DNA from: a virus
Lineage: Duplodnaviria > Caudoviricetes
Virus record (IMG/VR): IMGVR_UViG_3300044614_001923
Strand: one strand, 5' to 3'
DNA: 64,000 nt
In this document: positions 39,890 through 41,567 of the stretch, in pieces
How the letters are laid out: every line of letters begins with the position of its first letter
How positions within the stretch are numbered: the first letter of the stretch is position 1
Translations under genes and position numbers: made by a program
The notes under the pieces: model-generated
Told to the model about the DNA's origin: nothing
The model's database searches: none
Seen by the model: only the letters and a program-made list of their open reading frames with translations

Positions 39890-40216
39890 ATGAAGGACGC
39901 AGACCACAACCAAGAAAACAATTCCCAGAACTCATCAGATTCATCAGAAGACCAGCAAAAAGAGGCAAGAAAAAATCGCGGTTCTATCTTGAACAAATTA
40001 ATCTTTGTTATTTGCTGCTCAGTAGTTGCATTTGTCGGAATGAACTTTGTTTCCTGCAACTTTATGCTTCCAGGTTCTATGAATGAAGCAAATGCTAAGG
40101 GAGAATTAAAAAATCCTCCTCCTTTAGATTGCAAAGAATCTGAAAGAAGAGGATATGAAACTTTATTAGCAATTTTAACTACAGTAATTGCACTAAGAAC
40201 TAAAATAGAAGATTAA
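39890..40216 (+). CDS. Hypothetical membrane protein
   Basis: TM segment LIFVICCSVVAFVGMNFV and hydrophobic C-terminus; convergent with the lysozyme. Confidence 0.55.
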   Translation: MKDADHNQENNSQNSSDSSEDQQKEARKNRGSILNKLIFVICCSVVAFVGMNFVSCNFMLPGSMNEANAKGELKNPPPLDCKESERRGYETLLAILTTVIALRTKIED

Positions 40217-40695
40217 GAATTCCAAAGTTTACCTTCAGCAGTTCTTCTACGGGCAAGTCCTTTCTCTACGTTAGTTCCAGGATTGCGATAGAGATATAAA
40301 GCATCAGAAACTTTAGACCATTCTTTATTTTTAAGAACTCTAGTTATGGTATTAAAATTGGAAGACCCGTAAAAACCAGAACCAAGATTATAAGCAAAAG
40401 ATAGAAGAGCTCCTTGTTGATTTTCATTCATCTCATTCCAATAAGGGATTTTTTGAAGTGCAGGAAGAAATCTATGTTCAAGGTCAAATAATAATAATTT
40501 ATCAGCATATTCTTGTGTTATTTTCTTTCCAAGCATAAACGTAGATCCATTAAAATCTTTTGTACTTCCCCACCCAATCGTGATTGGTTCCTTTTTAGTA
40601 AGTGGATCTGGATATGCATATAAATGACACCCCTCAAATTCTCTAATTAAATCAACACCACATTGAGGAATTTTTAATTGTGGTGTTGATTCTAC
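40213..40695 (-). CDS. GH24 phage lysozyme domain, translated only via a -1 frameshift from the upstream gene
   Basis: The frame is open 53 codons beyond the track Met: VESTPQLKIPQCGVDLIREFEGCHLYAYPDPLTKKEPITIGWG (E-x8-D...T catalytic triad). No ATG/GTG/TTG precedes the catalytic Glu and TAA at 40705-40707 closes the frame. C-terminus has ALLSFAYNLG and GLARRRTAEGKLW. Confidence 0.85.
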   Translation of the reverse strand, partial: VESTPQLKIPQCGVDLIREFEGCHLYAYPDPLTKKEPITIGWGSTKDFNGSTFMLGKKITQEYADKLLLFDLEHRFLPALQKIPYWNEMNENQQGALLSFAYNLGSGFYGSSNFNTITRVLKNKEWSKVSDALYLYRNPGTNVEKGLARRRTAEGKLWNS

Positions 40696-40701
40696 TTTTT
40701 T
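40650..40701 (-). promoter_or_regulatory. Programmed -1 ribosomal frameshift signal
   Basis: A_AAA_AAG (40701-40695), then UAG, then a perfect 13-bp stem AAUCAACACCACA/UGUGGUGUUGAUU with a 16-nt loop. Confidence 0.8.
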
Positions 40702-41411
40702 GCATTAAAAATTCTTCCCCATCCATCATTACCATTAGGACACCATCTACGAGCAAGTTCTGAACGCTTGTAGACTGCTCCCTTACCATTTGCTACAGAA
40801 CCTGTATATCCGTCATTAAGACTACCGTAAGGGTCATTAACAACATAATCACCAGATGGAGTCTTACCAATAACTACAACCATGTGCCCACCAGTAGGTG
40901 CAGATAAAGAACCCCTGTGCAGAATACCAATAACGACAGGTCTCCCAGCAGATAAATTACTATCAAGATCAGAAAAAGAAAGACTGTAACTAAAGTGTGA
41001 CTGAATACCATAAGAGGCAAGAACTTTGGTCTGAACCAAATGATCAGTCGTGTCGCCAATTTGGAAAACTTTTTGTACATAGGCGTCATCGCCTTTAGGA
41101 CCTTTTAATGTTCCAGATTTGAAATATTCAAGGCACATTGCACAAGCAGATGAATTACAAGTTCTGTCAGCATCCCTGTAGTTATCTGTTTGTGGGTAAA
41201 AAGGAACTGCTAAGATACTTGCTTGTGGTTTTTCTTCTTTAGTTCTAAAAATTCTAACCCAGTTTGCATCATCTTGCATTAATTCCTGTGCTTTGAGAAA
41301 CAAATCTTTTTCAAATTGCTCTACTGCAGCAACATGCTTTGGATTATTCTCATCAAAGTGTTTAAAGAAGTTGTGAAGATCTATAATCATTGGTATATCC
41401 AAACCCTGCAC
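40692..41411 (-). CDS. C39-like cysteine peptidase domain protein (N-terminal part of the endolysin fusion)
   Basis: Q..C (YPQTDN..RTCNSSACAM), H (GGHMVVV), D (VNDPYG) triad; late promoter CATAAATA at 41414-41421; start GTG 41411 or ATG 41390. Confidence 0.8.
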   Translation of the reverse strand: MQGLDIPMIIDLHNFFKHFDENNPKHVAAVEQFEKDLFLKAQELMQDDANWVRIFRTKEEKPQASILAVPFYPQTDNYRDADRTCNSSACAMCLEYFKSGTLKGPKGDDAYVQKVFQIGDTTDHLVQTKVLASYGIQSHFSYSLSFSDLDSNLSAGRPVVIGILHRGSLSAPTGGHMVVVIGKTPSGDYVVNDPYGSLNDGYTGSVANGKGAVYKRSELARRWCPNGNDGWGRIFNAKK

Positions 41412-41567
41412 TATATTTATGAAAAAAGGAGGGTTTTACCCCTCCTCACTTCAAAGATCTTCTGTTGTTTTATTAATTGCGTATGAAATAAGAACTAAAG
41501 AACCAATACCAATAAGAGTGAAAAGTATTTCGTGAAACATTGTTCTTATCTAAAGGTACATTACTAC

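Follow-up and report, generated by a model that had tools for sequence, protein, structure and literature searches.

The locus described here lies on the minus strand of a 64,000-nucleotide (nt) stretch of viral DNA (Duplodnaviria; Caudoviricetes; IMG/VR record IMGVR_UViG_3300044614_001923), hereafter the window, which comes from a T4-like cyanophage (Kyanoviridae). Two open reading frames (ORFs) overlap at this locus: the first, in the 0 frame, codes for a predicted papain-like peptidase of 232 amino acids (aa), and the second, in the -1 frame, for a phage lysozyme that has no recognizable start codon. A heptanucleotide of the slippery type, A_AAA_AAG, stands at the overlap together with an abutting stop codon and a 3' stem-loop (Table 1). 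These elements very probably make up a -1 programmed ribosomal frameshift (PRF) signal of the dnaX/IS3 type, from which both the 232-aa peptidase and a 392-aa peptidase-lysozyme fusion would be obtained.

Table 1. Coordinates of the features of the lysin locus and of the N-terminal module copies (window positions unless another locus is named; SD, Shine-Dalgarno).
Feature	Position	Strand	Remarks
Peptidase ORF, 232 aa + TAG	40692..41390	-	ATG start at 41390, chosen by homology
N-terminal module, window	41241-41390	-	
Slippery heptamer A_AAA_AAG	40695..40701	-	0-frame phase GC[A AAA AAG]
0-frame stop TAG	40692..40694	-	abuts the heptamer; ends the peptidase-only product
-1 frame ORF, 163 codons + TAA	40213..40704	-	complete GH24 lysozyme
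TAA closing the -1 frame upstream	40705..40707	-	leaves a 10-nt overlap window that holds the heptamer alone
3' stem-loop, putative stimulator	40649..40692	-	14 pairs (13 Watson-Crick and a closing G-U), 16-nt loop
SD-like GGGGA	40716..40720	-	14 nt upstream of the heptamer
N-terminal module, locus L004	1510-1660		
N-terminal module, locus L004	2283-2430		
N-terminal module, locus L005	2340-2490		
ATAAATA, T4-type late-promoter-like motif	41414..41420	-	23 nt upstream of the peptidase ATG
Intrinsic-terminator-like hairpin	41426..41447	-	8-bp stem, 5 GC pairs, T tail
29-aa ORF	41451-41540	-	one hydrophobic span

From its ATG the peptidase begins MIIDLHNFFKHFD..., and translation from an alternative GTG at 41411 would give 239 aa. 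The first ~50 residues form a helical module with the motif IDLHNFFKxYDExNPxH...W..IYR, for which a Pfam search returned no family; the papain-like domain that follows matches PF13529 Peptidase_C39_2 (6e-13, 50 bits against a cut-off of 24). Gln67, Cys78, His169 and Asp186 are invariant across 90 peptidase homologs. A sequence search of the PDB with the peptidase gave no useful match. The structure predicted with AF2 from an alignment of 90 diverse homologs, with a predicted local distance difference test score (pLDDT) of 91, has 3erv, a C39-like peptidase, as its top Foldseek match, and further structural matches are Alr0975, which cleaves gamma-glutamyl peptides, and the C39 domains of ComA/PCAT. 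Because the catalytic residues are invariant and the model finds such matches, the protein is predicted to be a competent papain-like peptidase, and its substrate is presumably the stem peptide of peptidoglycan. The ORF ends with AAT GCA AAA AAG TAG.

Read from 40704 to 40216, the -1 frame gives CKKVESTPQLKIPQCGVDLIREFEGCH... and runs without a stop into an annotated 107-aa ORF and through it. The 163-aa translation matches PF00959 Phage_lysozyme over positions 2-125 of a 125-position profile (1e-21, 78 bits against a cut-off of 22.3), and the annotated 107-aa ORF by itself starts past the catalytic Glu, Asp and Thr. No ATG, GTG or TTG occurs in the -1 frame before the codon for the catalytic Glu (40635-40633). 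The first-pass annotation of this DNA had described such a start-less lysozyme running into the 107-aa fragment, and both the reading frame and the Pfam match confirm it. The coordinates that it gave for the peptidase end, the heptamer (40701-40695), the abutting stop and the upstream TAA are likewise right on the minus strand, and so are the sizes of the two products, 232 aa (239 from the GTG) and 392 aa, the latter continuing from the Val codon at 40695-40693 (232 + 160 aa). Moreover, the two ORFs of the window match positions 1-235 and 243-405 of one and the same 405-residue profile, PHROG 3617.

The lysozyme ORF is under purifying selection. Over 48 start-less loci the median nonsynonymous divergence (dN) is 0.22, the median synonymous divergence (dS) 1.36 and dN/dS 0.16, and the Glu of FEG, the Asp of YPDP and the Thr of ITIGWG are invariant in all 48. 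In the model of a natural fusion in which the A run is one base longer (A7, locus L167), the lysozyme half has a pLDDT >90 and a template modelling (TM) score of ~0.8 to P22-type and Acinetobacter GH24 endolysins; the peptidase half of this fusion model was poor, and the peptidase was remodelled separately with a deeper alignment.

Related junctions were read in 181 IMG/VR loci retrieved with three peptidase queries and in ten stretches from eight isolate phages, and were classified by script; the loci read are the best 80 per query, out of >400 IMG/VR loci and 105 isolate records. Among the 78 distinct junctions that have both domains, the lysozyme is in the -1 frame and overlaps the peptidase stop in 65, and the heptamer at these is A_AAA_AAG in 59, U_UUU_UUU in two and A_AAA_AAA in one. 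The largest class consists of 48 junctions without a plausible start for the lysozyme, where candidate starts are limited to occasional Leu/Val TTG/GTG codons within the 3' arm of the stem; a heptamer is present in every one of them (46 A_AAA_AAG, 2 U_UUU_UUU). It is also kept in all 14 junctions with an ATG/GTG/TTG overlapping the stop (ATGA type, e.g. S-SRM01; 13 A_AAA_AAG, 1 A_AAA_AAA), and it is lost from three in which the -1 frame has its own start (L047, L080, L177). The remaining architectures are in-frame peptidase-lysozyme fusions from ACG-2014f and marine contigs (eight junctions), in-frame A7 versions (two, L167 and L188), a reversed in-frame lysozyme-peptidase (one, S-CREM1) and separate genes (two, DSL-LC02 and DSL-LC03); apart from the A7 versions, whose run is one A longer, none of these contains a heptamer. 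The heptamer is found in 0 of ~16 distinct peptidase genes without a downstream lysozyme, the products of which end in ...GWGRVFQTP, ...IFN, ...DVK and similar. Since every one of the 48 start-less junctions combines the heptamer, the -1 offset and a 3' hairpin, the arrangement can be regarded, on this comparative ground, as more than chance.

The way in which the heptamer is written also bears the mark of conservation. The stop abuts it in 47 of the 62 heptamer junctions and lies 1-2 codons further in the remainder. The codon that supplies the first A (GCA in 31, GTA in 27, also GAA and ACA) varies in the residue encoded and always has A as its third base, and the KK of the heptamer is always AAA AAG, the Lys codons elsewhere in these genes being 67% AAA and 33% AAG. 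The overlap window measures 10-19 nt in all 23 junctions where no ATG/GTG/TTG precedes the catalytic Glu, and 36 of the remaining 42 fall in the same range. The heptamer is conserved at synonymous sites and dropped where it is not needed. The slipperiness of AAG is determined by the tRNA-Lys set of the host.

Upstream of the heptamer, the SD-like GGGGA pointed out in the first-pass annotation is present at the distance claimed. The run of G follows from the conserved Trp-Gly codons of GWG(R) and is found also in in-frame and peptidase-only loci. Because it is forced by these codons, the element gives no independent evidence of a stimulator, and a stimulatory role for it would be indistinguishable from the GWGR codon constraint.

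Downstream of the heptamer, the perfect 13-bp hairpin of the first-pass annotation does consist of 13 Watson-Crick pairs, to which a closing G-U is added; its arms (40692-40679 paired with 40662-40649) form the centroid structure, with a z-score of -2.1 for a 101-nt stretch. Across the stem family of the window (n = 22 sequences) 98.7% of the cells are paired and four pairs are changed on both sides. None of 500 shuffles matched the observed paired cells, double changes or covariation score, and when the partner was slid by 1-3 columns as a control, pairing fell to 30-48%. At the same position other lineages carry unrelated stems, namely GCCAACTAA/TTAGTTGGC, AACTCTACTCC/GGAGTAGAGTT and CCCCACTAT/ATAGTGGGG, as well as GCTCTAC/GTAGAGC in S-PM2 and GTAGAACC/GGTTCTAC in S-CAM7. 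In each of them the 3' arm codes for the residues with which the lysozyme domain begins, a conserved stretch (CGVDL, LVGI or GVEL), and the 5' arm, located in the variable linker, has evolved to match it. Folding of the 72 nt that precede the FEG codon gives mean z-scores of -4.0 and -2.9 in the two start-less groups; in five in-frame fusions (a comparison that leaves out L095 and L098) the z-scores of the same region range from -0.04 to +1.1, with -1.8 in ACG-2014f, and of these six in-frame junctions five have no hairpin. The comparison of homologs that the first-pass annotation had recommended found the heptamer and the -1 offset conserved and compensatory changes in the stem.

From these elements the following course of translation is proposed. 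Ribosomes would make the 232-aa module-peptidase; with the Lys tRNAs on AAA-AAG, most of them would continue into the TAG and let the peptidase go. The downstream stem-loop would hold a fraction of the ribosomes, which would slip back one base on A_AAA_AAG and then read GTA GAA... in the -1 frame, yielding a 392-aa module-peptidase-GH24 lysozyme with the junction ...IFNAKK/VESTPQLK... In this phage the frameshift would be the sole route by which the lysozyme is expressed. What the sequences show is the signal with its conservation and covariation, the selection on the start-less ORF and the natural in-frame equivalents; that ribosomes slip, how efficiently they do so, that the gene is expressed late and that its product acts as an endolysin are points that we infer. 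A programmed -1 frameshift fusing peptidase and lysozyme, as first put forward from the window alone, is supported by the heptamer, the invariant -1 offset, the covarying hairpin, selection, the natural in-frame fusions and the indel-free assemblies.

Some observations count against a frameshift and have to be weighed with the rest. The spacing from heptamer to stem is 2-8 nt across junctions, the usual frameshift spacing being 5-8 nt, and in the sub-family of the window the stem begins just 2-3 nt past the heptamer, only its GC core lying at 6 nt. The stability of the hairpin is moderate, about -16 to -19 kcal/mol, and when each start-less junction is ranked among the native 66-nt windows of its own locus, just 56% reach the lowest tenth (median 9th percentile). 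Furthermore, an ATG/GTG/TTG overlaps the stop in 14 junctions and the heptamer has been lost from three, and therefore the lysozyme can work unfused in some phages. Finally, in S-CAM7 the T8 run has a length at which RNA polymerase could slip.

This last point leads to transcriptional slippage, in which RNA polymerase would add an A (or U) within the homopolymer and produce a fraction of in-frame mRNA with no slip of the ribosome. The site is indeed a homopolymer (A6 here, T8 in S-CAM7), DNA variants with A7 exist in L167 and L188, and the protein obtained would be identical; it is in S-CAM7 that such slippage is most credible. In bacteria, runs of ~8-9 or more are typical of transcriptional slippage, and the A6 of the window is short by comparison. 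Moreover, the final G of the heptamer and its codon phase are conserved, and a covarying 3' stem at frameshift spacing plays no part in polymerase slippage. This explanation is very unlikely.

The lysozyme might otherwise be translated independently, through re-initiation past the peptidase stop or from a rare codon (ATT, ATC, CTG or an internal TTG/GTG), with the heptamer and the hairpin serving for coupling or mRNA stability. The ATG/GTG/TTG that overlaps the stop in the 14 junctions of ATGA type means that coupled initiation is used in some lineages; the KIP motif of the family of the window contains ATT or ATC, and a TTG or GTG stands 5-15 codons before the catalytic Glu in 21 junctions. 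However, the 48 start-less junctions share no conserved start codon, and the internal TTG/GTG are ordinary Leu/Val codons in the 3' arm of the stem, without an SD sequence. Independent translation also leaves unexplained a heptamer that is present in every start-less junction and in no peptidase-only gene, and that is lost just where a start exists (L047, L080, L177). In addition, the lysozymes encoded by separate genes carry their own copy of the N-terminal module, which argues that the module is needed. Independent translation is, on balance, very improbable as the general explanation.

The authenticity of the junction was examined in seven metagenome runs dated 2016-2025 (X1, X7, X10, X14, X15, X17 and the RNA run X20), X1 being flagged as a possible source. 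In six of the runs the junction is spanned by contigs, some identical and some diverged, with 0 gaps and without indels; the 2005 record of S-PM2 does not differ there from that of a 2015 deletion mutant, and the T8 run is common to three S-CAM7 isolates and two metagenomic contigs. An assembly or homopolymer error is ruled out by the indel-free contigs and by the agreement of the S-PM2 and S-CAM7 records. That no recoding takes place at all, and that the locus is a decaying pseudogene after a 1-nt deletion, an A6/A7 phase-variable DNA switch or a homopolymer sequencing error, is very improbable: the break does fall in a homopolymer, A7 in-frame versions exist and the sister clade is in frame, but the dN/dS and the catalytic residues invariant in 48 distinct loci rule out a pseudogene, the same offset is seen in Sanger and Illumina-era isolates and in many metagenomes, with contigs free of indels, the heptamer and the hairpin are conserved and covarying, and A6 and A7 stand at 59 versus 2 among distinct junctions. 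As to RNA, a 151-nt contig of X20, a lake metatranscriptome, matches 40550-40700 exactly, that is, the 5' region of the lysozyme with the hairpin, and ends within the heptamer; from it one learns just that an RNA library contains the lysozyme region, possibly through DNA carry-over.

The relatives in which both domains are read in one frame help to place the frameshift in an evolutionary context. The eight in-frame fusions read ...GWGRIFDAKVEEKKS...FEG (in ACG-2014f and the marine contigs, ...GWGRIFDAKVEE...FEG), and in L167 and L188 the sequence AAA AAA GTA GAA gives KKVE, which is the predicted trans-frame junction, with the hairpin retained. Homologs in frame and without heptamer or hairpin, which the first-pass annotation would have taken as a sign of an assembly indel in the window, are indeed found in the ACG-2014f-like sister clade. 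The indel is not implied, the junction being indel-free, and what these fusions show would be an ancestral or alternative state. In the peptidase tree the S-CAM7 lineage with U_UUU_UUU is nested within the marine in-frame clade. The clade formed by S-PM2, the window and freshwater contigs has mostly A_AAA_AAG, with scattered gains of start codons, losses of the lysozyme and A7 versions, L188 being nested among frameshifting relatives. Read without a fixed root or direction of change, the tree suggests that the frameshift arose at least twice and was abandoned repeatedly, the U_UUU_UUU of S-CAM7 representing a probable second origin.

The N-terminal module follows the two enzymes in these rearrangements. 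In DSL-LC03 and DSL-LC02 peptidase and lysozyme are separate genes, each headed by its own module copy, and over 52 residues the duplicates share 44% identity; in S-CREM1 lysozyme and peptidase flank the module. Judging from gene layout, the module appears to travel with both enzymes in these architectures, except for such lysozyme as the ATGA-type lineages may make from an ATG/GTG/TTG of its own, and the frameshift may be the route by which the lysozyme gets its module. A further layout is seen in L080-L082 (2166-2801), where the ATG of the -1 ORF overlaps the peptidase TGA, ~50 extra residues (MTIKFIDAAENHKGLPHQND...) precede the lysozyme domain and no heptamer is present.

A more far-reaching proposal, which we hold only tentatively and consider rather doubtful at present, is that the frameshift is a stoichiometry device of a two-enzyme lysis machine. 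It would have evolved at least twice from in-frame fusions, with A_AAA_AAG in the S-PM2/freshwater clade and U_UUU_UUU in S-CAM7, each catalytic domain needing the module in cis; this need is suggested by the duplication of the module where the genes are separate. One gene would then give the module-peptidase in bulk and the module-peptidase-lysozyme at a fixed lower dose, and the two products could possibly form a mixed oligomer that times lysis.

The surroundings of the locus are those of a cyanophage genome. The flanking genes include psbA, hli, pstS and a peroxiredoxin gene, the closest isolates by DNA identity (70-73%) are the Synechococcus phages S-SRM01, S-PM2 and S-CREM1, and the metagenome runs that contain this stretch are from lake water. 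The intrinsic-terminator-like hairpin appears, from its structure, to close the upstream unit immediately before the lysin gene, and relatives repeat the order of terminator-like hairpin followed by promoter-like motif. Of 59 distinct related loci, 29 have a late-promoter-like motif at a distance of 20-24 nt upstream of the ATG, and 32 have one no more than 80 nt away; ATAAATA would accordingly be a candidate promoter. In the peptidase-only loci L120, L125, L133-L136, L142, L153, L160, L163 and L175, a conserved TATAAATA...CCTTGACAAC block is present ~5-40 nt past the stop, and it looks like a combination of late-promoter-like and sigma-70-like motifs replacing the lysozyme.

The fusion product is probably a late endolysin. 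This role is the likeliest one because of the late-promoter motif, the PHROG lysis families and the listing of PET-C39-2, which is found among the endolysin domains and is enriched in cyanophages (PMC5017753); a virion-associated role is also conceivable. A partner holin was not identified, no search of the whole genome having been made. Directly upstream of the lysin gene, a 29-aa ORF (MFHEILFTLIGIGSLVLISYAINKTTEDL) with a single hydrophobic span ends at the terminator-like hairpin. It is possibly a small membrane protein, and a holin-like role for it would be pure speculation.

The mechanism proposed has well-known counterparts. The Escherichia coli dnaX gene (tau/gamma) has the identical A_AAA_AAG in its 0 frame, followed within a few nt by a 3' stem-loop and preceded at 10-14 nt by a G-rich element, and it likewise gives two products at a set ratio from one gene. 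In dnaX, however, the shift soon terminates and shortens the protein, whereas here it would add a 160-aa catalytic domain; moreover, the 0-frame stop abuts the heptamer here, and selection on the upstream SD-like element cannot be shown. The OrfA-OrfAB system of IS3/IS911 also combines A_AAA_AAG with a 3' structure, and its start-less -1 ORF is expressed solely as a fusion that shares the N-terminal part. It differs in that the product is a transposase and not a phage cell-wall hydrolase, that many IS3 members use a pseudoknot and that the overlap measures 10-19 nt in the present family. A third parallel is the tail assembly chaperone pair G/GT of tailed phages, where a late gene gives, by a conserved -1 frameshift, a short and a long protein with a common N-terminus; this frameshift persists across diverged phages though the slippery sequence varies. 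It serves tail assembly, usually without a strong 3' structure, whereas two lysis enzymes would be joined here.

Among lysis genes, the endolysin gene for LysA of phage Ms6 (and, as proposed, of CMP1) gives two products through an internal in-frame start, with a presumed ratio or complex between them (PMC3111421). As in the present case, two polypeptides that share a part come from one lysis gene; theirs share the C-terminus through initiation, whereas here the N-terminus would be shared through recoding at the end of the first ORF. The ACG-2014f-like fusions (PHROG 3617) and the reversed S-CREM1 protein (PHROG 10051) have the same domains, the junction region GWGRIFDAK-VE... and a peptidase that is 55-61% identical, but they are single ORFs without a heptamer and give one product. 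A full-text search, which left most subscription journals outside, turned up no published account of frameshifting in the lysin of a cyanophage, nor in an endolysin of any kind. On the strength of the comparative evidence, the site can be considered a real, conserved recoding of known mechanism in a new class of genes.

The splitting of this gene into a truncated lysozyme by standard annotation, foreseen from the window, is seen in the records of S-PM2 and S-CAM7. Public records (L002, L006, L190, L191) annotate just a C-terminal lysozyme piece of 72-90 aa, named 'putative lysin', 'lysin' or 'hypothetical protein', at 116499-116717 in S-PM2 (NC_006820; L002) and at 156765-157037 in S-CAM7 (NC_031927; L006), and leave the catalytic N-terminal part of the lysozyme unannotated between two genes. 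In a review of T4-like phages, S-PM2 is counted among those without an apparent gene e (PMC3014915).

With this gene, lysis enzymes would join the short list of phage functions for which PRF is used, namely tail chaperones and capsid and tail extensions. Phylogeny backs the case with unusual clarity: the heptamer is conserved, the stem covaries and is replaced, natural derivatives exist that are in frame or have their own start, and a second origin is probable. For a cyanophage gene of wide occurrence the annotation would also be corrected, S-PM2, S-CAM7 and hundreds of metagenomic contigs showing a truncated 'lysin' beside a 'hypothetical protein'. Finally, S-PM2 on Synechococcus WH7803 would provide a tractable system in which to study frameshifting in cyanobacteria and the dosing of muramidase versus endopeptidase.

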